Shown one piece after another: positions 701 to 28,201 of a stretch of 64,000 bases of DNA; the stretch's first letter is position 1, and the number at the start of each line of letters is the position of its first letter. Origin of the DNA: a virus (Duplodnaviria; Caudoviricetes); the IMG/VR virus record IMGVR_UViG_3300021431_000102, positions 1 to 64,000 of that record, one strand, 5' to 3'. A program made the translations under genes and the position numbers. A model generated the notes under the pieces. The model saw only the letters and a list, made by a program, of their open reading frames with translations, was not told the DNA's origin and made no database searches.

Positions 701-729
701 TTGACTTTTAGATTTGGATATGCTATAAT
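701..729 (+). promoter_or_regulatory. sigmaA early promoter
   Basis: TTGACT-17-TATAAT, TGn. Confidence 0.85.
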
Positions 730-751
730 GAAAACATGAAAGGAGATTTGT

Positions 752-1120
752 ATGAATTATAATAAAATTTATAAAGTAACTATGGTAAGCAGAGACAGTA
801 ATTTTAAATTAAATAAATATGTTAATCAGTATATTCTTACATGCGATAATTGTGACGCTGATATGGAAATTAATTTAACGGGTAACTTATGTTTTAATAC
901 GGACTATATGGTTACGAAAAGAGTGCCAGTAACTGAAGTACACGACATTAATGATATATTGAGTTTTATTGATAGAAATAAAATTAATATATCTGACGAT
1001 AGTATTGATGTTGATAATAATATATTTTGGGTTGGTGGCGAGTGTGATTATGGATTATCTTTTGAAAATTTAGAACGGCTAGGTTGGAAAGAAGATTTAA
1101 AATTAGGTATTGACTTTTAG
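752..1120 (+). CDS. hypothetical early protein
   Basis: AAAGGAG SD, ORF between two promoters. Confidence 0.75.
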   Translation: MNYNKIYKVTMVSRDSNFKLNKYVNQYILTCDNCDADMEINLTGNLCFNTDYMVTKRVPVTEVHDINDILSFIDRNKINISDDSIDVDNNIFWVGGECDYGLSFENLERLGWKEDLKLGIDF

Positions 1121-1138
1121 AAATCAATATGTTATAAT
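1110..1138 (+). promoter_or_regulatory. sigmaA early promoter
   Basis: TTGACT-17-TATAAT, TGn. Confidence 0.85.
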
Positions 1139-1169
1139 GGAAATGTGAAAAGGAAAGTGAGGTATTGAA

Positions 1170-1430
1170 ATGGAAAAGAAGATTTATAGAAATGGACAGG
1201 ATGATATTGGATTTGAATTTAAGTATGAAGATGAGCACGATTTAAGAGTTACACTTGAGGGTTTAGCGTTTGAGTTATTATCTTTCATTGCTGAGTATGG
1301 AATGGAAGAAGAACTCATAGACCATTTAGAAAGTCCGACATATTATATTGGAGATGATTTTAAAGCAGAAATTGTTGAAGATATGGATGAGTATTTAGGT
1401 AGTGATTGGTATGAACATTTAGGAAAATAA
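1170..1430 (+). CDS. acidic hypothetical early protein
   Basis: GAGGT SD; D/E-rich 86 aa. Confidence 0.75.
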   Translation: MEKKIYRNGQDDIGFEFKYEDEHDLRVTLEGLAFELLSFIAEYGMEEELIDHLESPTYYIGDDFKAEIVEDMDEYLGSDWYEHLGK

Positions 1431-2353: not shown

Positions 2354-2590
2354 ATGGAAATTAGAAGAGAAGAAGTTGAAAAGGTAATTAAGGAATTAGA
2401 TAATCTATCCTTTATGGTTAATAATTATCACACCATGCAATTAGGTATGTTTATTTGGCAGAGATATGGTAGTCTTCGGGGAATTACTGAGGAGAATTTA
2501 AAAGAGATTGACAATGTTTTAAGCAATCACGAAACATTATATGATTGGGGTCTTTTAGAAGACGTAGAAGATATTGTCAAGCCTTATTGA
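2354..2590 (+). CDS. hypothetical protein
   Basis: AAGGAG SD, same 21-nt leader as previous gene. Confidence 0.7.
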   Translation: MEIRREEVEKVIKELDNLSFMVNNYHTMQLGMFIWQRYGSLRGITEENLKEIDNVLSNHETLYDWGLLEDVEDIVKPY

Positions 2591-2604
2591 TTAAAACGCT
2601 GTAT

Positions 2605-8364: not shown

Positions 8365-8393
8365 TTGACAAACGAAATGAAATGTGTTATAAT
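8365..8393 (+). promoter_or_regulatory. sigmaA early promoter
   Basis: TTGACA-17-TATAAT, TGn. Confidence 0.85.
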
Positions 8394-8421
8394 AAAAATG
8401 TAAATGAAAGGAGAAATTAGA

Positions 8422-8688
8422 ATGAAGTTTATTAAAAAGTGTAGTGTTGGCGAAATGTTTGTTGGAGTTTATGAAAAAGAAAAGGGAGTATTTGTTTGTG
8501 TGGATGGTCTTCAGTTCGATGAAACATATTCTAAGGAAGAAATTGATTTTATTACAGATGAATATAAAGGTCGTTTACTGGAAGATTATGTTGCAGATAA
8601 CAAGGAAGATGCAATCAACGAAATGCGGAATAGAATTTGTGATTTGTTAAATGAATATTTCTTTGATGAAGAGGATTTTGTAAGTTAA
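8422..8688 (+). CDS. hypothetical protein
   Basis: AAGGAG SD before ATG 8422. Confidence 0.7.
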   Translation: MKFIKKCSVGEMFVGVYEKEKGVFVCVDGLQFDETYSKEEIDFITDEYKGRLLEDYVADNKEDAINEMRNRICDLLNEYFFDEEDFVS

Positions 8689-8721: not shown

Positions 8722-9078
8722 ATGTTAGTTGTAGTAGTAGGAGTTGTACCATTAATTTGGCGTTTAGCAATGTTAGTTTTAGATAAACAGCCGTTAGAAG
8801 AACAGTATGCAATTAAAAGAGCATTCTATACAATTATTATTGGATTGTTATATTATTTATTAATATTTGGTAGTCAGTATTTATCTGCAATTGAATATCT
8901 GTTAGGTCTTCCAGCGTCATTATTAATGGCTAATATGCATGTCGAATTAATATTAAGATGGTGTGCACGTAATGAAAGAATTAAGAATGAACAGGGTTAT
9001 GGAGCTGCATTCTTAGATTGTGGTAAGTTAATTGTTATAGCAATTATATTATTAACGATAGTAGTAATTTGTAAATAG
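8722..9078 (+). CDS. small multi-pass membrane protein
   Basis: 3-4 hydrophobic segments. Confidence 0.65.
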   Translation: MLVVVVGVVPLIWRLAMLVLDKQPLEEQYAIKRAFYTIIIGLLYYLLIFGSQYLSAIEYLLGLPASLLMANMHVELILRWCARNERIKNEQGYGAAFLDCGKLIVIAIILLTIVVICK

Positions 9079-9089
9079 AAAGGGTTAGC

Positions 9090-9440
9090 GTGAAGAATGG
9101 AATGGATATTAAAGAATTAAAAGAAAAAATAAAAAACAATATACATATAATTTATAATGTCTCATTATTAAATGAAGACATGATAGAAGAAAGTGATTTA
9201 GAAGATATTAATATATCAGCATATTGTTTATATAAAGACATGAGAGATTTGGTTTCTTTATATGAAAATAAAATTCTGAATTTGGGAAAAGAAATTAAGA
9301 ATTTGAGAATTGAAAATGAAAATTTGTCTAATGAATTACTTACGGCAGAAGTTGCTTTAAATAAAGCAACGCATGGTAAAATTCACGAAGCAATGGATTG
9401 TGTAAAGATAGAGGATATATTCTTTTCAGTAGATGATTAA
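9090..9440 (+). CDS. hypothetical coiled-coil protein
   Basis: ORF, heptad-like C-terminal half. Confidence 0.65.
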   Translation: MKNGMDIKELKEKIKNNIHIIYNVSLLNEDMIEESDLEDINISAYCLYKDMRDLVSLYENKILNLGKEIKNLRIENENLSNELLTAEVALNKATHGKIHEAMDCVKIEDIFFSVDD

Positions 9441-11127: not shown

Positions 11128-12279
11128 ATGGCATTTAAGATGAATAAAGTTAAGGTTGATTTATGTAGTTATCCTCAGTATGTCCTTATTGGTCAGAGAG
11201 GAATCGGTAAGACAACTCTGTTTAGAGATATTGTCAAAGCAGAATATGGTTCTCCAGAATGCGGATTGTTAATCTCTTGCGGAAACGAAAGTGGCTATCA
11301 TGCATTAGATGATTTACAGGTTGAAGAAGTTCATGAATGGACAAAGGAATATGGTTATCCTGAAAGTGAAGAAGGAGTACCAGAAGAATATTGGACACGT
11401 GGTCTCGTAGAAGTAATTGATGATTTAGTAAATAATAAATCAAATTACAAAATTAAGATTGTATGTCTTGATACTTTAGATGAACTTTATCCTTTAGCAG
11501 AACAGAGAGTATTTGAAGAGCACAAGAAGAAGAAGGGTACCTACCCTGAGAGTCTTAATGCAGCACTTGGTGGTTACGGACGGGGACAGCAGCGTGCTGT
11601 AGAACTTGTAACAGAACAGATTTCTCGTTTAAGAAACGCTGGATATGGAGTATTCATTATCGGACATGTTAAGGTTAAGGATAAGATTGACCCTGTAACT
11701 GGCGATGTGTACGAACAGTATACAAACAACCTGTCAAATAAATACTTTGGAGCCGTAGCTGACACTGCACAGATGGTAGTTAATATTGTTAATGAACTTA
11801 ATGTCGTAGGTGGTAATGCTGATAAGGCAGGAAGAATTGCTGGCTCAAGTCGCATGATGTATTTTAGAGATACAGGTTTGATTGATGCTAAGAGTAGATT
11901 TGTAGGTATGCCTGAAAAGTTACCATTATCTGCAGAAAATTTCTTACAGGCTTTTAAAGAAGGAGTTAAAAATTCTCAGTCGGTTCCAATTTCAGAAAAG
12001 GAAATGAAAAAGCAGATTAAGAAAGAAGAAAAGGATTCTCAAATTCTCTCAGAGAATGCTCAGAAGAAGGAGCAGAAAGCTGATACTAGAAGAAGAGAAG
12101 AACTGGTCACTTCAATTAAGGATTCTATGAAGAATATTCTCTCAAAGAAAGAAGCAGAAAGCGTTGCAAAGTTGCAGTCTATCTTTAAGGAATATGAAAT
12201 TTCTAATGCAGATGCAATTGATAGTTTAGAATTAAACAAGTTAATTAGTTTATTATCTGCAATTGAAAAATTGAATTAA
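11128..12279 (+). CDS. AAA_24/Sak4-like P-loop ATPase (phage recombination/annealing)
   Basis: Walker A GQRGIGKTT, Walker B CLDTLDE. Confidence 0.8.
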   Translation: MAFKMNKVKVDLCSYPQYVLIGQRGIGKTTLFRDIVKAEYGSPECGLLISCGNESGYHALDDLQVEEVHEWTKEYGYPESEEGVPEEYWTRGLVEVIDDLVNNKSNYKIKIVCLDTLDELYPLAEQRVFEEHKKKKGTYPESLNAALGGYGRGQQRAVELVTEQISRLRNAGYGVFIIGHVKVKDKIDPVTGDVYEQYTNNLSNKYFGAVADTAQMVVNIVNELNVVGGNADKAGRIAGSSRMMYFRDTGLIDAKSRFVGMPEKLPLSAENFLQAFKEGVKNSQSVPISEKEMKKQIKKEEKDSQILSENAQKKEQKADTRRREELVTSIKDSMKNILSKKEAESVAKLQSIFKEYEISNADAIDSLELNKLISLLSAIEKLN

Positions 12280-22249: not shown

Positions 22250-22780
22250 ATGAATAGAGAAAAATTATTAGAAGAGAATATGAAATTAGTTCCACACGTT
22301 GTGCATAACGTGTTAAAAATTCCAACAACGGAATTTGATTATGAAGACATCTTACAGGAAGGATATATTGGATTGTGGAAACGGACAAAAAACTTTTCTG
22401 AAGATAATGATGCAAAATTTTCAACTTATGCTTGTACATGCATTAGAAATCGTGTTATAAATTATTTAAACAAACCTAGAAGAACTTTTTACAGAGGAAT
22501 ATATATGGGAGGTGTTTCTCTTGATAACACATTAGATGACTCAACAGAAAACACTTTCCATAATGTTATAGGTAGCGAAGAATCTGACACCGCAGGATAT
22601 GTAACATTAAAAAATGTTTTAGATTCATTAGATAAAGATGATGTAATGGTTAAAACATTAATGTTACATATGCAAGGATATAGTAATTTAGAAATATGTG
22701 ATATTATTGGATGCGCAAAGCCTACTGTAAAAATTTATCTAGACCAAATAAGGGAATACATCAAGTATCAACTTGGTTAG
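22250..22780 (+). CDS. phage-encoded sigma70-family RNA polymerase sigma factor
   Basis: Region 2 EDILQEGYIGLWK..AKFSTYA..CIRN; region 4 HTH GYSNLEICDIIGCAKPTV. Confidence 0.85.
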   Translation: MNREKLLEENMKLVPHVVHNVLKIPTTEFDYEDILQEGYIGLWKRTKNFSEDNDAKFSTYACTCIRNRVINYLNKPRRTFYRGIYMGGVSLDNTLDDSTENTFHNVIGSEESDTAGYVTLKNVLDSLDKDDVMVKTLMLHMQGYSNLEICDIIGCAKPTVKIYLDQIREYIKYQLG

Positions 22781-22790
22781 AAGGAGCAAT

Positions 22791-25022
22791 ATGAAAGATA
22801 TAAAAGTAAAAAAGCGTAATGGAAAGCTGCAAGATTTTAATTCTGAAAAAATTTATGCTGCTATTATGGGAGCTGTAAACGATGTTGGCAGACCTATTAA
22901 CGAAGACATTATAAAAAGAATTGTAAAAGATATTGTTGAATATGTAAATACCCTTGATAAAGAGTTTATTACGATTGAAGAGATTCAAGATTTAGTAGAA
23001 AATAAATTAATGAATAGTTCTCTAAAAGATATTGCTAGACAATATATTAGATACAGATATAAAAGAGAATTATTAAGGAAACAAAACACAACTGACGAAA
23101 GTATTATTGAATTATTAGCAGGTAATAATGATTATTGGAACAGAGAAAACTCTAATAAAAATGCTAAACTAACAACTACTGTTCGTGACTATGTTGCTGG
23201 TATTACTTCAACAGATATTGCTAGAAGAGTTTTATTACCAAAAGATGTTGTTGAAGCACATGATGCTGGAATAATTCATATCCATGACATGGATTATATT
23301 TTAACACCAAGAAACAATTGTTGTCTTGTTAACTTAGAGGACATGTTAAATAATGGTACAGTAATTAACGGCATTAAAATTGAATCACCTCATAGATTCA
23401 TTACAGCAAGTACTATTGCTACACAGATAATTACTGCTGTAAGTTCAAGCCAATATGGTGGTGTTACTGTAAGCATGACGCATCTTGCTCCTTTTGTAAG
23501 AAAATCTTATAATAAATATTTAAAAGAATATTTAGAAAGAGGATTAGAGCAGAAACAAGCAGAAGATTTTGCTAGATTAGACACTGTTAGAGAGGTTAAG
23601 GATGGCGTTCAGACATTTAATTATCAGGTAAATAGTATGTCAAGTACTAATGGACAGGCTCCATTTATTACCGTTAATTTAGATATTTCAGAAACAAAAG
23701 AATATAAACAAGAATTAGCAATGATTATAAAAGAATTCTTTAATCAAAGAATTGAAGGCATGAAAAATGAACAGGGCGTCCCTGTAACAATTGCTTTCCC
23801 AAAATTAGTTTATGTCCTTTCAGAAGAAAATGCTGTTGAAGGTTCTGAATATTGGTGGTTAACTAAGTTAGCAGCCAAGTGTACTGCTAAGAGAATGGTT
23901 CCAGACTATGTATCTAAGAAAAAGATGCAGGAATATAAGATTAATAGGTTTGGTAATGGTGATTGCTATCCTCCTATGGGATGTAGAAGTTTCTTAACGC
24001 CGTACAGAACGAAGGGCAATATTGCCAAAGCTTTAAACTATAAAGAAGATGAACCTAAATATTATGGCAGATTTAACAATGGTGTAGTTACTATTTCATT
24101 ACCAGATTTAGCACTTAGTTCAGGTGGAGATTTTGATAAATTCTGGGAATTATTTGAAGAAAGAACAGAATTATGTCATAAAGTATTGAAATACAGACTG
24201 GATTCTTTGAAGAATTTAAGTCCTGAAGTAGCTCCTATTCTATGGAAGTATGGAGCATTTGCAAGACTTAACTCTGATGATTCTATTGAACCATTATTAC
24301 ATGATGGGTATTCTACAATATCATTAGGTTATGCTGGTTTATATGAGTGTGTAAAATATATGACAGGCAAATCTCATACAGATGAAGCAGAAGGCGAAGC
24401 ATTTGGACTGAAAGTCATGCAGGCTTTAAATGACAAATGTGCTCAGTGGAAAGCTGCTGAAGATGTTGATTATTCTGTATATGGAACACCAATTGAAACA
24501 ACTACATATAAGTTTGCTACTTGCCTTAAGAAAAGATTTGGAAAAGATGTTTTCAAAAAGATTGACGGCACTGATACAGATAGAGACTTTATTACAAATA
24601 GTTATCATGTCTTTGTTGAAGAGCCTATTGACCCATTTGAAAAGATTAGATTAGAAGCAAAGTTCCAAAGATTAAGCCCGGGTGGTGCAATTAGTTATAT
24701 AGAAACATCAGATTTAACTAACAATGTAGATGCAGTATTAGAAGTTATTAAGTTTATATATGATAATATTGTTTATGCTGAATTAAATACTAAATCAGAT
24801 TATTGTCAAGTCTGTGGATATGACCATGAAATAAAGATTATTGAAGATGGTAAGGGTAATTTAATTTATGAATGCCCGAACTGTGGCAATAGAGACCATA
24901 ATAAAATGAATGTAGCAAGAAGAGTCTGTGGATATATCAGCACGACTATGCCAAATAATGGAAGAATGGACGAATTTCGAAACAGGTATGTGCATTTAGA
25001 CAACCATGAATTAAAGGAGTAA
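22791..25022 (+). CDS. nrdD: anaerobic ribonucleoside-triphosphate reductase with ATP cone
   Basis: VKKRNG ATP cone, MGCRSFL, CQVC/CPNC, RRVCGYI glycyl-radical motif. Confidence 0.95.
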   Translation: MKDIKVKKRNGKLQDFNSEKIYAAIMGAVNDVGRPINEDIIKRIVKDIVEYVNTLDKEFITIEEIQDLVENKLMNSSLKDIARQYIRYRYKRELLRKQNTTDESIIELLAGNNDYWNRENSNKNAKLTTTVRDYVAGITSTDIARRVLLPKDVVEAHDAGIIHIHDMDYILTPRNNCCLVNLEDMLNNGTVINGIKIESPHRFITASTIATQIITAVSSSQYGGVTVSMTHLAPFVRKSYNKYLKEYLERGLEQKQAEDFARLDTVREVKDGVQTFNYQVNSMSSTNGQAPFITVNLDISETKEYKQELAMIIKEFFNQRIEGMKNEQGVPVTIAFPKLVYVLSEENAVEGSEYWWLTKLAAKCTAKRMVPDYVSKKKMQEYKINRFGNGDCYPPMGCRSFLTPYRTKGNIAKALNYKEDEPKYYGRFNNGVVTISLPDLALSSGGDFDKFWELFEERTELCHKVLKYRLDSLKNLSPEVAPILWKYGAFARLNSDDSIEPLLHDGYSTISLGYAGLYECVKYMTGKSHTDEAEGEAFGLKVMQALNDKCAQWKAAEDVDYSVYGTPIETTTYKFATCLKKRFGKDVFKKIDGTDTDRDFITNSYHVFVEEPIDPFEKIRLEAKFQRLSPGGAISYIETSDLTNNVDAVLEVIKFIYDNIVYAELNTKSDYCQVCGYDHEIKIIEDGKGNLIYECPNCGNRDHNKMNVARRVCGYISTTMPNNGRMDEFRNRYVHLDNHELKE

Positions 25023-25025
25023 CTT

Positions 25026-25529
25026 ATGAGAATCGCAAACATTAGACGTATAGACATTACAAATGGCGAAGGTATTAGAGTATCTTTATTTACTCAAGGT
25101 TGTTCGTTACATTGTAAGGGGTGTTTCAACTATGATATTTGGGATTATAATGGCGGAGAATTGTGGACAGAAGAAACTAAACGTATGTTCTTGTCTTTAT
25201 GCGATAAGCCTGAGATAAAAGGAATATCTATCTTAGGTGGCGAACCACTGTCTAAAGAAAATTATGAAGACTTAAAAGATTTATTAATCACTTTTAAACA
25301 GGAATTTCCTAATAAAGATATCTGGTTATGGACAGGATATACAGTAGAAGAGTTAACCCCTGAACAAAAAGACATTGTTATGTTAGTTGATGTTCTAATT
25401 GATGGTAGATGGGTTCAGGAACTAGGAGATTTTAATTTAAAATTTAGAGGTTCTAGTAATCAAAGAGTAATTGATGTACAAAAATCTTTAAAAGAAAATA
25501 AAATTATTTTAAAAAATGTTGACTTTTAA
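25026..25529 (+). CDS. nrdG: anaerobic RNR activating enzyme (radical SAM)
   Basis: CSLHCKGC, LGGEP, RGSSNQR. Confidence 0.95.
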   Translation: MRIANIRRIDITNGEGIRVSLFTQGCSLHCKGCFNYDIWDYNGGELWTEETKRMFLSLCDKPEIKGISILGGEPLSKENYEDLKDLLITFKQEFPNKDIWLWTGYTVEELTPEQKDIVMLVDVLIDGRWVQELGDFNLKFRGSSNQRVIDVQKSLKENKIILKNVDF

Positions 25530-25547
25530 ACAAAAATAATGTATAAT
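25519..25547 (+). promoter_or_regulatory. sigmaA promoter driving the RNA/tRNA operon
   Basis: TTGACT-17-TATAAT. Confidence 0.8.
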
Positions 25548-25551
25548 ATAT

Positions 25552-25698
25552 ATGAAAGATGAGGAAGACGTTGTGAGGATTCTAAAACTTATCTTATCAA
25601 TAATTTCCGCTACATTATCCATTTTAAATCAAGATAGAAAGATAAAATTATATTGGTTATTGGTCGCTACATATTGGATAATTAATCGGTTCAACTAA
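25552..25698 (+). CDS. small hydrophobic peptide (41-48 aa)
   Basis: Open frame ..VRILKLILSIISATLSILNQDRKIKLYWLLVATYWIINRFN; GAGGA SD before an internal GTG. Confidence 0.45.
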   Translation: MKDEEDVVRILKLILSIISATLSILNQDRKIKLYWLLVATYWIINRFN

Positions 25699-25770
25699 GG
25701 TTACACACCGTTTCATATTAATGAGTAAATCCTTGAGGAATCTAAAAACGGTGTTTCTCTAAATCAATAA

Positions 25771-27241
25771 ATCTGCAATATGGACTATGACAGGTACCAA
25801 GTAAAAGTCATAGAGAAGTCCACTAGATTAGGAACTAGTCAGGCAACCAAGACGAAGAGCCTGAAAAAACATTACCTGAGAGTTGAGTAGCTACTTCTCC
25901 AAAGGCGACTATAAAGGATTAGACAGGCAGTCGACATAAGGGACTAAGCAGATTTAGATAATATTATTGAGGGTACAGGCATCGAGCCAACATTCAATTA
26001 GTTGCCAAGACCTTAAGAAATGTTAGAGGTCTGAAATCTCAAGATAAAACTGGTGGTGCAGCCTTGAGTAAGTAATGCGAAACGTGCCTTCTGGGGCTTG
26101 TAAAAAGCGAACCACTTACAGACTGAGGTGGTATATAAGAAGCAGTCATATCCCACCACCGCATACCTAACGCTCGTTGGGTGGATGTACTAGTTAAAGT
26201 GCGGAAACTCAAGGGATAGACTCCCTTCAAACAGAGGTTGAGCTCTGTAAAGTGTTGGTAGCCAAGCATTAAAAGGCGCTTAAGACAATAGTTGCTGCGT
26301 ACGTGGAACACTTGGAGGACGAACTCCTTGTATATCGGCTAAGCGTTGGGAAAAGGAACTGGAACGTAATCCTAGGCAAAAGGGTAGAGATATACATAAC
26401 TTGCCAATATAAATGTTGTGAAATCCACAGCAGATGCGTGTGATTGATTGATAGAAAGGAATGTAATGGCACAAATAAAAAATTATTCTGGTTATGAATT
26501 TTTTGAAGATGGACGAGTGTATTCTTATAAGGTTAAGCGTTTTTTAAAACCATCTTTAAACAAAGACGGATATTTGCAATTAGATTGCATAGATGATAAT
26601 GGAAATAGAAAAAGACACACTTTAAATAACTGGATATGTCGAGCATTTCATGGAGACCCTCCATTTGAGGGGGCAGAATCACTTCATTTAGATGAAAATC
26701 CATTAAATTGTCATAGTAATAATTTAATATGGGGTAATCATAAAGAAAATATCAATTATGGTTCAAGAACTACTAAAAATGCTATTTCTCATTATAAACA
26801 AGTCCAGCAATATGATTTAAAGAATACCTTATTAAATACATACACTTCTATTAAAGAAGCTAGCAACGCTACTAAAATTTCTTATACTGGCATTATTAAA
26901 GCCGCACAAGGGAAAATTCAAACATCAGGAAATTATATTTGGCGTTATACAAACTAATACTATTGAAACTGCACACCCAACACTAATTCGTTTGGTAGAG
27001 TACGAGAATAACTACCCAAGAAGGGTTCACGATGGTACCTTGCTTCACAACCTAGAGCAGTAAAGAAATGCAACTATAGAGCAGAGTAAAGAGACTAAAG
27101 GTAAATCGTTGTAAAAATGGTGATGTCAGTTTGAACGGGACTGGGACAAAAACGTTCCTTGCTGGGTTAGGCTAGTGATACCCAACGAAATCCTAGTATT
27201 TGGCTTATATACTTGAGAAAGTAGTGACTAGCATTGCAGAT
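25771..27241 (+). ncRNA. giant structured ncRNA, probably ROOL class, interrupted by an HNH ORF
   Basis: GC-rich, dense in hairpins; ATCTGCAAT (25771-79) pairs perfectly with ATTGCAGAT (27233-41); the 5' block GCAATATGG-CTATGA..GTAAAAGTCATAGA..TAGTCAG-CAAC..CGAAGAG-CTGAAAAAACATT resembles ROOL as I recall it; sits upstream of tRNAs in a phage. Structured RNA is well supported, the family name less so. Confidence 0.7.
26466..26957 (+). mobile_element. HNH homing endonuclease (NUMOD4-HNH-NUMOD1 type, I-HmuI-like), 163 aa
   Basis: KNYSGYEFFEDGRVYS N-terminus; AFHG..HLDENPLNCHSNNLIWGNHKEN HNH core; VQQYDL..YTSIKEA..GNYIWRY C-terminus; AGAAAGGA SD. Confidence 0.85.
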
Positions 27242-27420
27242 GAAGACTAAAATAAGCTGTCTTCACACACAGGAATAACACTGTTGTCTGCCAGTGCCTG
27301 CGATTAGTAGCAAAGCCTTACGTACAGTACGAACTGGTAACAGGCGGTTTGATGCCACCTGCCCAGCGTTGGCTAAAAGCTGTACACCCGTTTGGCAGAG
27401 TTCGAGAATAACTGCCGAAC
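27242..27420 (+). ncRNA. additional hairpin-rich RNA segment between the giant RNA and tRNA-Met
   Basis: Consecutive stems GAAGAC/GTCTTC, CAGG..CACTG/CAGTG..CCTG, CAGG/CCTG, CAGC/GCTG, GTTTGGCAG/CTGCCGAAC. Confidence 0.55.
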
Positions 27421-27424
27421 ATAT

Positions 27425-27503
27425 TGCGGGCGAGTGGCACGGATATACCATATTAGGCTCATAACCTAATGATACTAGGTTCGACTCCTAGGCACCGCAA
27501 CCA
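27425..27503 (+). tRNA. tRNA-Met(CAT), initiator-like but atypical
   Basis: TTAGG-CTCATAA-CCTAA anticodon arm, CTAGG-TTCGACT-CCTAG T arm, ends CCGCAACCA. Confidence 0.85.
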
Positions 27504-27506
27504 TAT

Positions 27507-27582
27507 TAGACTGTAGCCAAGTGGTAAGGCACCAGACTTTGACTCTGGCACTTCGCTGGTTCAAATCCAGCCAGTCTAGCCA
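27507..27582 (+). tRNA. tRNA-Gln(TTG)
   Basis: Clean cloverleaf: TAGACTG/CAGTCTA, CCAGA-CTTTGAC-TCTGG, encoded CCA. Confidence 0.95.
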
Positions 27583-27584
27583 AT

Positions 27585-27658
27585 GGGGGATTAGTTCAAA
27601 GGCAGAACAATCGGCTGTTAACCGATATATAGAAGTTCAATTCTTCTATCCCCCGCCA
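27585..27658 (+). tRNA. tRNA-Asn(GTT)
   Basis: GGGGGAT/ATCCCCC, ATCGG-CTGTTAA-CCGAT, encoded CCA. Confidence 0.95.
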
Positions 27659-27684
27659 ATAGAAAAACAGAAAGGAGGGCAACA

Positions 27685-28053
27685 ATGGATTTTAATGAAT
27701 GGCTATTGGAAGATAGATTACATGTAATTGATATTACAATTATAAAAGACCATCACAATTTTATAATTAATGTTCTTAAACCAGAAAAGAATAAAATAAA
27801 AGAAAATCAAATATCTTTTATTAGAAATTTTGTTCTCCTTGATTTATTTAAAAAAGTTACAGATAAATATAATGGAGGCACAATAAACGACGAAGAGTCA
27901 CCTATTATAATTAGCCCTGAAAAAGGTAAAGATGAAAATGATGGCTGTGCAGAATATGATAATAATCATGTATTAATTAAGTTTTCTCCATTAAAAGTAT
28001 GTAGTGATGAATGGTGCTTATGGTATTATAAAAAATTTATTGAAAGGACTTGA
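27685..28053 (+). CDS. hypothetical protein
   Basis: AAAGGAGG SD. Confidence 0.7.
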   Translation: MDFNEWLLEDRLHVIDITIIKDHHNFIINVLKPEKNKIKENQISFIRNFVLLDLFKKVTDKYNGGTINDEESPIIISPEKGKDENDGCAEYDNNHVLIKFSPLKVCSDEWCLWYYKKFIERT

Positions 28054-28054
28054 C

Positions 28055-28201
28055 ATGGGAAGAAAAAAGAAGTATAATATACTTGAAGATGCAGAAATGG
28101 TATCTTTATTAAAGGAGTATAGTTCGTTAAGAGATTGGTGGCAAGTAAGGAAAGAAAAGTTAAGCAAGAAAAAGAAAGGAGCACCAAATGATTCACATTG
28201 A
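28055..28201 (+). CDS. small basic hypothetical protein
   Basis: AAAGGA SD before ATG 28055. Confidence 0.55.
   Translation: MGRKKKYNILEDAEMVSLLKEYSSLRDWWQVRKEKLSKKKKGAPNDSH

Follow-up and report, generated by a model that had tools for sequence, protein, structure and literature searches.

The stretch analysed here, the first 64 kb (hereafter the window) of the 87.9-kb IMG/VR viral contig IMGVR_UViG_3300021431_000102, raises the question of what kind of RNA, if any, is encoded directly ahead of its tRNA genes, at positions 25768-27420 of the + strand. A preliminary description had matched the 5' block of this region to ROOL, a giant phage RNA, and had taken the whole for a probable ROOL enlarged by ~300 nt of extra peripheral domains, or for a new relative. 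Comparison with relatives reveals instead a genuine structured non-coding RNA locus of modular build, which belongs to a family absent from Rfam 15 and is neither ROOL, nor GOLLD, nor a group I intron. One of its modules, named W in this study, is an autonomous and widespread RNA motif that stands alone in the tRNA arrays of ~30 other phage contigs. In the window, the loop of helix P5 of this module is interrupted by a clean insertion of a cassette encoding an HNH homing endonuclease. For the locus as a whole, a mosaic chain of independently folding RNA modules, and not one ROOL-like fold, is the reading cautiously preferred here.

A modular RNA locus outside the known giant RNA families

Apart from the HNH gene, the stretch is non-coding. 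Outside that open reading frame (ORF), no ORF between 25700 and 27500 matches a protein family in Pfam or PHROGs, and single-base indels occur among relatives inside the most conserved blocks. Small ORFs on both strands were considered as protein-coding candidates and rejected, with zero PHROG matches. The guanine-cytosine (GC) content is raised over 25700-26450 (0.38-0.46) and 26960-27600 (0.39-0.50) and is lower in the HNH ORF (0.25-0.33) and the flanking genes (0.24-0.35), so that the contrast pointed out in the preliminary description holds for the RNA (0.38-0.50), while its figure of ~20% for coding DNA was too low.

Relatives were gathered by motif scans of IMG/VR and JGI metagenomes (L-numbers denote loci), which returned about ten non-redundant lineages, all located in tRNA islands of uncultured rumen phages and all devoid of + strand ORFs of at least 70 aa inside the RNA. 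Their E-INS-i alignment consists of conserved blocks interrupted by lineage-specific inserts of up to ~600 nt and thus describes a mosaic. The modules follow the order elemA, D1, domain B, variable hairpins, W, a 3' hairpin, an optional RNA-B and a tRNA-like end, each closed by its own helix and joined to the next by short, A/U-rich linkers. Locus length ranges from 0.5 to 1.7 kb, and the distance from D1 to the first downstream tRNA amounts to 1.0-1.8 kb in total. Modules are lost independently, as W is absent from the L002/L005 lineage and D1 from L006. The supported helices contain G-U pairs that are compatible with the + strand only, and no helix joining two modules was seen to covary when the alignment was screened as a whole. 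Scans for D1, domain B, the hairpin motif and RNA-B returned only the same small family, and blastn of the region against 50,697 GenBank phages gave no match. Two further loci from a scan of genome contigs, L022 and L023, were set aside as chance matches in coding DNA.

The identity of the locus was approached with covariance models. A cmscan of 25400-27700 against all 4,227 Rfam 15 families at E<=10 listed only tRNAs, with no match to ROOL, GOLLD or a group I intron. When the whole 88-kb genome and ten relatives were searched, the ROOL model (RF03087, gathering score 99.1 bits) found nothing at E<=10, and the same search scored 130.4 bits on the known ROOL of L. salivarius pMP118, which served as a positive control. 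The GOLLD model (RF02032; 416 positions, gathering score 150 bits, covering the conserved 3' region of GOLLD) likewise found nothing at E<=10 in the same sequences, in a search that had no GOLLD-specific positive control, and the group I model was equally negative there. Conversely, a covariance model of W gave no match on the pMP118 ROOL. The layout differs as well: the ROOL consensus of ~581 nt contains six multistem junctions together with three pseudoknots (PMC5737381), while the homologues studied here span ~0.5-1.7 kb, gain and lose modules, and show module-local helices with one supported pseudoknot. What the locus does share with ROOL is its location near tRNA genes in a phage or prophage, since the contig is viral and the relatives lie inside tRNA islands. 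The ROOL identity assigned to the 5' block therefore fails against the Rfam models, and a mosaic of locally closed modules takes the place of the supposed ROOL with peripheral additions. As a large, ornate, phage-encoded non-coding RNA next to tRNA genes (here tRNA-Gln and tRNA-Asn, directly downstream), the element had nevertheless been described correctly in kind.

Among the homologues, most of the stems that had been picked out by eye proved conserved or covarying (ACTAG/CTAGT, CAGGC/GCCTG, ACCAC/GTGGT, AAGGGA/TCCCTT, ACAGAG/CTCTGT, GGAG/CTCC and GAACG/CGTTC), while an outer GGAC/GTCC extension is not kept. The 9-bp helix between 25771-79 and 27233-41 that had been thought to close the whole unit is a perfect complement, yet it is not conserved in relatives and was rejected. 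Its 3' arm lies inside an insert (27157-27304) present only in the window and in L003, in all eight aligned relatives the 5' arm forms a local helix with 25948-56, L006 has a hairpin in place of the whole domain, and ~4 such 9-bp matches would be expected by chance in 1.5 kb, by a rough estimate of the authors made without a tool.

Module W and its homing endonuclease

The W motif is 100-270 nt long, with a core of ~100 nt and five helices, P1 to P5. From the 5' end, P1 (7-8 bp) is followed by two nucleotides (U, R) and by P2 (3 bp), whose 11-nt loop is invariant; next come a conserved junction of 12-14 nt, P3 and P4, which bear an expandable domain known in at least three subtypes, the linker GAUGC (5 nt), and P5 (5 bp) with the loop AUUGA^AACUG, after which the 3' strand of P1 follows at once. 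In the window, the 5' part comprises the 5' strand of P1 (26251-58), P2 (26261-63/26275-77) with the invariant loop AAGCAUUAAAA, the junction AAGACAAUAG, P3, P4 with a 118-nt expansion hairpin, the 5' strand of P5 (26438-42) and the loop half AUUGA.

Support for this fold comes from its pattern of change. Some 45 nucleotides are invariant across phages of 30-50% GC, and compensatory changes are seen in 7 of 25 pairs when the family is aligned with the W-only locus L021, and in 16 of 23 pairs (155 compensatory cells) among 27 distinct sequences. In the latter set, 96.6% of cells are paired compared with 75.3% after shuffling and 26-44% with slid partners, and none of 500 shuffles reached the observed covariation score. 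A covariance model built from 10 compact W sequences (R1) recovers 10 untrained copies at 65-97 bits and detects the split W of the window at 49.8 bits (E 1e-9) despite the 519-nt insert; it finds a single copy in the window's genome. The window thus carries the features that define the W family, namely P1-P5, the invariant strings AAGCAUUAAAA, AAGACAAUAG and GUGAUUGAAACUGCAC, and a match to R1.

A looser scan for two invariant W strings returned 33 IMG/VR contigs, of which L044 matches by chance, in coding DNA. The new carriers, mostly phages of 20-180 kb and 30-50% GC, have neither D1 nor domain B. Their W usually lies inside a tRNA array, where 4-7 nt separate its closing helix from a complete preceding tRNA (for Thr, Pro, Arg, Met, Gln or Val). 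A role for W as cis-regulator or leader of one gene family was rejected because the ORFs 3' of W show no relationship among themselves and most copies have tRNAs on both sides. In its 3' half the motif is proportioned like a tRNA, with a variable loop of 5 nt, a T-like stem of 5 bp and an acceptor-like stem of 7-8 bp, and neither the Rfam tRNA model (RF00005) nor ARAGORN gives a match to W at any locus. In the same set of GenBank phages, the only W matches (E=4) fall inside an uninterrupted T4-like nrdD coding sequence and were dismissed as chance, not a sunY/nrdD intron. No name for W was found in Rfam or in the literature searched, and the motif may be among the candidate RNAs of up to 151 nt within a set of 8,495 unnamed candidate structured RNAs from IMG/VR (PMC10690425).

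Several loci show local rearrangements or additions around W. In L017 (- strand, at ~950-1250 within the locus) the W 5' part, from AAAGTGTTGGT to CAAGCATTAAAAG, is duplicated around a ~300-nt insert that holds pseudo-tRNA-like pieces with T-arm hairpins and looks like an insertion or recombination footprint. In L021, a GC-rich W-only phage, the spacer of ~110 nt between tRNA-Gln and W (8460-8570) is also GC-rich and contains a perfect 12-nt palindrome (GGCGGTACCGCC) as well as UAAUGU, which is complementary to the W loop; further downstream (9046-9080) lies a near-threshold match to the DUF3800-XI RNA (35.4 versus 37.8 bits).

The HNH ORF noted earlier inside the RNA region is an insertion, as relatives with empty sites make clear. 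The cassette is made up of an ORF of 163 codons, preceded by 18 nt that include an AAGGA ribosome-binding site and followed by 9 nt; it has no intron core, and the best protein matches are HNH genes of Lactococcus phages at ~38% identity. Only the window and its twin L003 (99% identical) are occupied. An empty site, in which GTGATTGA is directly followed by AACTGCAC, is found in L004, L006, L007/L020, L009, L013 and L017; this empty-site DNA contains GTGTGATTGAAACTGCACAC, and in six relatives the sequence reads without interruption from GUGAUUGA into AACUGCAC, short only of the 519 nt. The insertion point is the middle of the P5 loop, within the most conserved 20 nt of W. At the same point L021, L028, L031, L032, L041 and L050 carry extra hairpins of 17-35 nt, and since the loop tolerates these hairpins in other phages, the W fold may still close around the cassette. 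An endonuclease gene in a permissive loop of the most conserved DNA of the family is typical homing behaviour, here without an intron and in an RNA gene. The NUMOD4-HNH_3-NUMOD1 architecture and the precise insertion in the most conserved stretch resemble the HNH endonucleases of Firmicutes phages, which are free-standing or intron-borne (I-HmuI-like). Unlike in those systems, the target is a non-coding RNA gene and the cassette sits in a hairpin loop with no intron, so that the non-coding transcript would have to be the endonuclease mRNA. A group I intron (RF00028) around the HNH ORF was considered and rejected, given no model match at E<=10, no intron core, and W flanks that are complete tRNAs and not exons.

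The accompanying modules and their genomic setting

The first domain of the RNA, D1, is closed by a helix of 25768-76 (UAAAUCUGC) with 25948-56 (GCAGAUUUA) that forms in 8 of 8 aligned relatives and encloses an invariant hairpin (25785-91/25807-13) and three covarying inner helices. Nine of the 32 pairs in its alignment (A2) are compensatory, and 95.7% of cells are paired versus 88.6% in shuffled alignments, none of 500 being as high. In place of the GGAC/GTCC extension, 25819-22 pairs with 25941-44, again with compensatory change. The hairpin that replaces the entire domain in L006 reads AAAUCUG-UA-CAGAUUU.

The loop of the D1 hairpin carries a 6-mer that exists in three versions: GGTACC in the window, L002, L003, L008 and L020; GGATCC in L004 and L017; and GCCGGC in L009, L010 and L013. 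All three are perfect palindromes, and 2 of the 3 self-pairs have changed on both sides while none has changed on one side only. In L003, L004, L009, L013 and L017 the 6-mer is found once in the whole RNA. As it cannot fold upon itself, the simplest reading is pairing between two RNA copies, and the pattern suggests that the 5' RNA may pair with a second copy of itself through the D1 loop. A second GGUACC lies in block 1 of RNA-B (27042-47). It is confined to lineages whose D1 loop also reads GGUACC, so that a contact between D1 and RNA-B would be an alternative to self-pairing there.

Domain B contains the pseudoknot of the locus, in which 26001-05 pairs with 26058-62 and crosses the helix 26038-43/26063-68. 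In the alignment of nine sequences (A1) its 21 pairs are formed in 100% of cells; 5 of them are compensatory, 2 of these in the pseudoknot helix. The variable region that follows measures 70 to ~600 nt in relatives and carries hairpins resembling tRNA T-arms. At the 5' end, elemA always precedes D1 and comprises a helix P1 (ACACCGUU/AACGGUGU) with a compensatory change, a hairpin of variable length, the invariant GGGUAAAUCC and a terminal U-run; the 45-55-nt inserts of L006 and L017 fall in one loop. Rfam has no match to this conserved element, which may serve upstream tRNAs as a terminator or attenuator or else form the RNA's true 5' domain.

On the 3' side of W, the stem of the hairpin motif changes in a compensatory manner from GGTAG/CTACC to GGCAG/CTGCC and GATAG/CTATC, and in L004 and L013 a tRNA lies within 8 nt after it. 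RNA-B is present in the window, L002, L005, L006 and L020 and absent from L004, L009, L013 and L017; its insert at 27157-27304 (148 nt) occurs in the window and L003 only. Compared with the window (27017-27152), L003 (345-395, - strand) has the 136 nt of RNA-B block 1 swapped for an unrelated 51 nt that resembles an L020 segment, and the two also differ by a patch in W P2 (GCC/GGC versus GAC/GUC). Between genomes that are 99% identical, both differences point to recent recombination at module borders. RNA-B ends in a tRNA-like element in every lineage that has it (e.g. L002 3727-3803, L006 9930-10006). The copy in the window scores 28.1 bits with the Rfam tRNA model, against a gathering score of 29, and has two acceptor-stem mismatches; the counterparts in L002, L005 and L006 show a 1:72 mismatch together with an unusual T loop (UGCAAGU), and their D loop lacks GG. 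None of these RNA-B-end elements, that of the window included, is called by ARAGORN.

Upstream, a near-consensus promoter-like site (Table 1) is likely to be the start of a transcription unit that would run through the RNA and the tRNAs, judging from its sequence and position: no other strong promoter-like site follows before 28050-28078, and the interval up to 28050 is free of terminator-like sites. The small hydrophobic ORF in front of the RNA (48 aa, or 41 aa from GTG) is found only in the lineage of the window and L003 and has no Pfam or PHROG match. In most relatives, a tRNA with a long variable arm and a UCA anticodon lies just upstream of the RNA; it is labelled 'SeC' by ARAGORN and reaches 36-43 bits with the Rfam tRNA-Sec model, below the gathering score. 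Together with the CUA-anticodon tRNAs carried by L041 and L045, these anticodons suggest that the phages have suppressor tRNAs and possibly recode stop codons. The closest cultured phages by NrdD are Enterocloster bolteae phages of ~100 kb (60% amino-acid identity), which carry the skipping-rope RNA (RF02924) after nrdG instead of an RNA of the window type. In Enterocloster phage CB457P2 (OP172754.1, L024) this RNA is unannotated, lies at 9126-9205 (- strand) in the gap after the nrdG-like gene, and scores 65.5 bits against a gathering score of 36.7.

Table 1 Features of the RNA locus and its surroundings (window positions unless a relative is named).
Feature	Position	Strand	Details
nrdD	22773-25022		Upstream of the RNA locus
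nrdG	25026-25529		Upstream of the RNA locus
Sigma-A-type promoter-like site	25519-25547	+	Near-consensus; TTGACT-17-TATAAAT region, 11/12 matches
Small hydrophobic ORF	25552-25698		Directly 3' of the promoter-like site, 5' of the RNA
elemA, structured leader element	25699-25764	+	~65 nt; alignment A4: 17 pairs, 3 compensatory
Domain D1	25768-25956	+	Closed by 9-bp helix 25768-76/25948-56
Self-complementary 6-mer GGUACC	25793-25798	+	In the 15-nt loop of the D1 hairpin; candidate intermolecular kissing site
Domain B	25970-26090	+	Closed by 7-bp helix 25970-76/26084-90
Variable hairpin region	26091-26250	+	Hairpins 26112-16/26131-35, 26211-16/26224-29, 26232-37/26245-50
Module W, 5' part	26251-26447	+	Alignments A3, A5; model R1 49.8 bits
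Homing-endonuclease cassette	26448-26966	+	519 nt; direct repeat ATTGA on both sides
HNH ORF	26466-26957	+	163 aa from ATG, AAGGA before; NUMOD4-HNH_3-NUMOD1 (Pfam), PHROGs HNH endonuclease families
Module W, 3' part	26967-26984	+	Loop half AACUG, P5 3' strand 26972-76, P1 3' strand 26977-84
3' hairpin motif, copy 1	26989-27019	+	GGUAG-AGUACGAGAAUAA-CUACC
RNA-B, optional module	27020-27420	+	Highly conserved block 27024-27125; GUACAG/CUGUAC-closed junction
3' hairpin motif, copy 2	27389-27419	+	Inside RNA-B
Aberrant tRNA-like element	27430-27503	+	CUCAUAA (CAU) anticodon loop, canonical T arm, encoded CCA
tRNA-Gln(UUG)	27507-27582	+	Directly downstream
tRNA-Asn(GUU)	27585-27658	+	Directly downstream
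UCA-anticodon tRNA (L004)	11832-11927	-	
UCA-anticodon tRNA (L006)	8368-8461		
UCA-anticodon tRNA (L020)	709-802		
UCA-anticodon tRNA (L009)	1082-1176		
UCA-anticodon tRNA (L017)	2502-2595	-	

One giant RNA or a chain of small ones

Under the mosaic reading, the whole chain would be co-transcribed with the tRNAs from the promoter at 25519-47, and RNase P and RNase Z would cut W, and probably neighbouring modules too, from the precursor as stable RNAs. The free-standing HNH cassette has invaded W in this phage and its twin L003, and W may still fold around it; the palindromic loop of D1 would mediate self-association of the 5' RNA. Several points weigh against this reading. The transcript, its ends and its processing are deduced from sequence features, and collection of the relatives by motif scans biases the co-occurrence of modules. 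Minimum free energy gives modest z-scores, -2.2 in the 5' part and -0.8 in the 3' part, so that structural support rests on covariation and not on thermodynamics. The palindrome evidence amounts to three haplotypes, with a chance of ~1 in 27 given that both sides changed (estimated by the authors without a tool), and the likeness of W to a tRNA is one of outline, as it has no encoded CCA, no anticodon loop and a P5 loop of 10 and not 7 nt. In addition, most lineages share one order of D1, domain B, W and the hairpin, uninterrupted by any tRNA or promoter, which fits one covalent RNA equally well. The only inter-module candidate points in the same direction: the invariant unpaired UAAUGC of domain B (26073-78) is complementary over 6 nt to the W loop GCAUUA (26266-71) and could tie the two together, and the W-only L021 has UAAUGU upstream of its W. 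A single giant ornate RNA, with the modules as domains of one fold and a homo-oligomeric state like that of ROOL or GOLLD, in a different family, is accordingly a possible though distinctly less probable alternative. Such an RNA would measure ~0.7-1.1 kb here without the HNH cassette and up to ~1.7 kb in relatives, and would share W with smaller stand-alone RNAs. The self-complementary D1 loop, kept by compensatory changes and unique in the RNA of five lineages, would suit it, and GOLLD offers a precedent with its variable 5' half, conserved 3' half, linker tRNAs and RNA-only cages (10.1101/2024.12.08.627333). What argues for separate modules is that the cross-module screen yielded no covarying long-range helix, that every supported helix is module-local, that modules are lost, gained and swapped independently, and that W stands alone in ~30 other phages.

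The remaining explanations, a divergent member of the known families or decay in a tRNA island, are improbable even when taken together. A divergent, oversized ROOL, or a divergent GOLLD, would be as large and helix-rich and would occupy the same niche, beside tRNA genes in phages from metagenomes whose nearest cultured relatives are phages of gut Clostridia, and both families were described in exactly this context (PMC5737381; 10.1101/2024.12.08.627333). This identity is nevertheless close to refuted, since neither RF03087 nor RF02032 finds a match at E<=10 in the window, the genome or ten relatives, compared with 130.4 bits for the RF03087 control, since the W model finds nothing in a true ROOL, and since a beads-on-a-string layout of 0.5-1.7 kb is at odds with the ~581-nt ROOL consensus of six junctions and three pseudoknots. 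Non-functional debris of decayed tRNA genes and mobile elements, or an HNH-bearing group I intron, could account for the variable inserts with T-arm-like hairpins and pseudo-tRNA fragments, for the aberrant tRNA-like element in which the region ends, and for an HNH gene of a type that is often intron-borne. It is very unlikely in view of helices that are maintained by compensatory changes across lineages and in unrelated phages of 30-50% GC, and of the ~45 invariant nucleotides in W. Nor is there a group I match; the cassette is an ORF with 18 nt and 9 nt that is absent from otherwise intact relatives, and complete tRNAs, not exon halves, flank W.

The comparison with known systems places the locus between several of them. 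Like ROOL (RF03087; PMC5737381; cryo-electron microscopy in 10.1101/2024.12.08.627333), it is a large, helix-rich, pseudoknotted RNA of phages or prophages beside tRNA genes, and its self-complementary D1 loop hints, from sequence alone, at the intermolecular pairing that holds ROOL cages together. It differs in having no model match, a variable length of 0.5-1.7 kb compared with ~581 nt, and a modular chain with one supported pseudoknot. With GOLLD (RF02032) it shares giant size, a position by tRNA islands, variable and conserved parts, and tRNA or tRNA-like pieces inside or at the end; unlike GOLLD, it has no match to that model, and its conserved unit, W, is a core of only ~100 nt that also exists alone.

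Phage tRNA clusters are also known to give rise to stable non-tRNA RNAs that are co-transcribed and co-processed with the tRNAs, e.g. the 'species 1 and 2' RNAs of T4. W is similar in that it lies in tRNA arrays, is separated from its neighbours by a few A/U-rich nucleotides and has an acceptor-like closing helix. Its conservation among unrelated phages is much higher and one of its arms can expand, and we know of no sequence relationship between the two. Other tRNA-like domains occur in transfer-messenger RNA (tmRNA) and in the Y-RNA-like RNAs of the YrlA type. Here W is alike in outline: its closing helix is abutted 3' by a hairpin of 5 bp, there is a 'variable loop' of 5 nt, 2 nt precede a short D-like arm, and a long helix stands where the anticodon arm would be. 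Unlike these domains, W has no encoded CCA, no match to tRNA, tmRNA or Y-RNA, a loop of 10 compared with 7 nt, and a conserved junction of 12-14 nt that has no tRNA counterpart.

By analogy with these systems, one may guess at a role linked to tRNAs or translation during infection, either as a tRNA mimic or decoy or as a self-associating scaffold like ROOL and GOLLD. Perhaps W is a new class of phage tRNA mimic, which would be released by tRNA-processing enzymes, would act on the tRNA-handling or tRNA-targeting machinery of the host, and would here be tethered to a self-dimerising or multimerising scaffold of D1 and domain B. It could then, for instance, act as a decoy that draws off anticodon nucleases or other defences aimed at tRNAs, or it could bind tRNA partners. 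This proposal is speculative and rather unlikely as it stands; if true, it would represent a third independent invention of a self-assembling RNA particle linked to tRNA islands, beside ROOL and GOLLD.

Among RNAs whose function is still to be found, ROOL and GOLLD are some of the most striking; every further family adds a point of comparison. The relatives of 0.5-1.7 kb form a natural series of variants, and the self-complementary loop offers a handle on multimerisation. That a homing endonuclease has settled in a non-coding RNA gene, with no intron, identifies the P5 loop as a structurally permissive site and the 20 bp around it as the family's most constrained DNA. W itself is compact (100-140 nt), small enough for biochemical and structural work, and behaves like an extra "gene" in tRNA arrays. 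Even if the RNA were only a processed array of spacers, it would demonstrate the need to test "giant RNA" calls beside tRNA genes for modularity.

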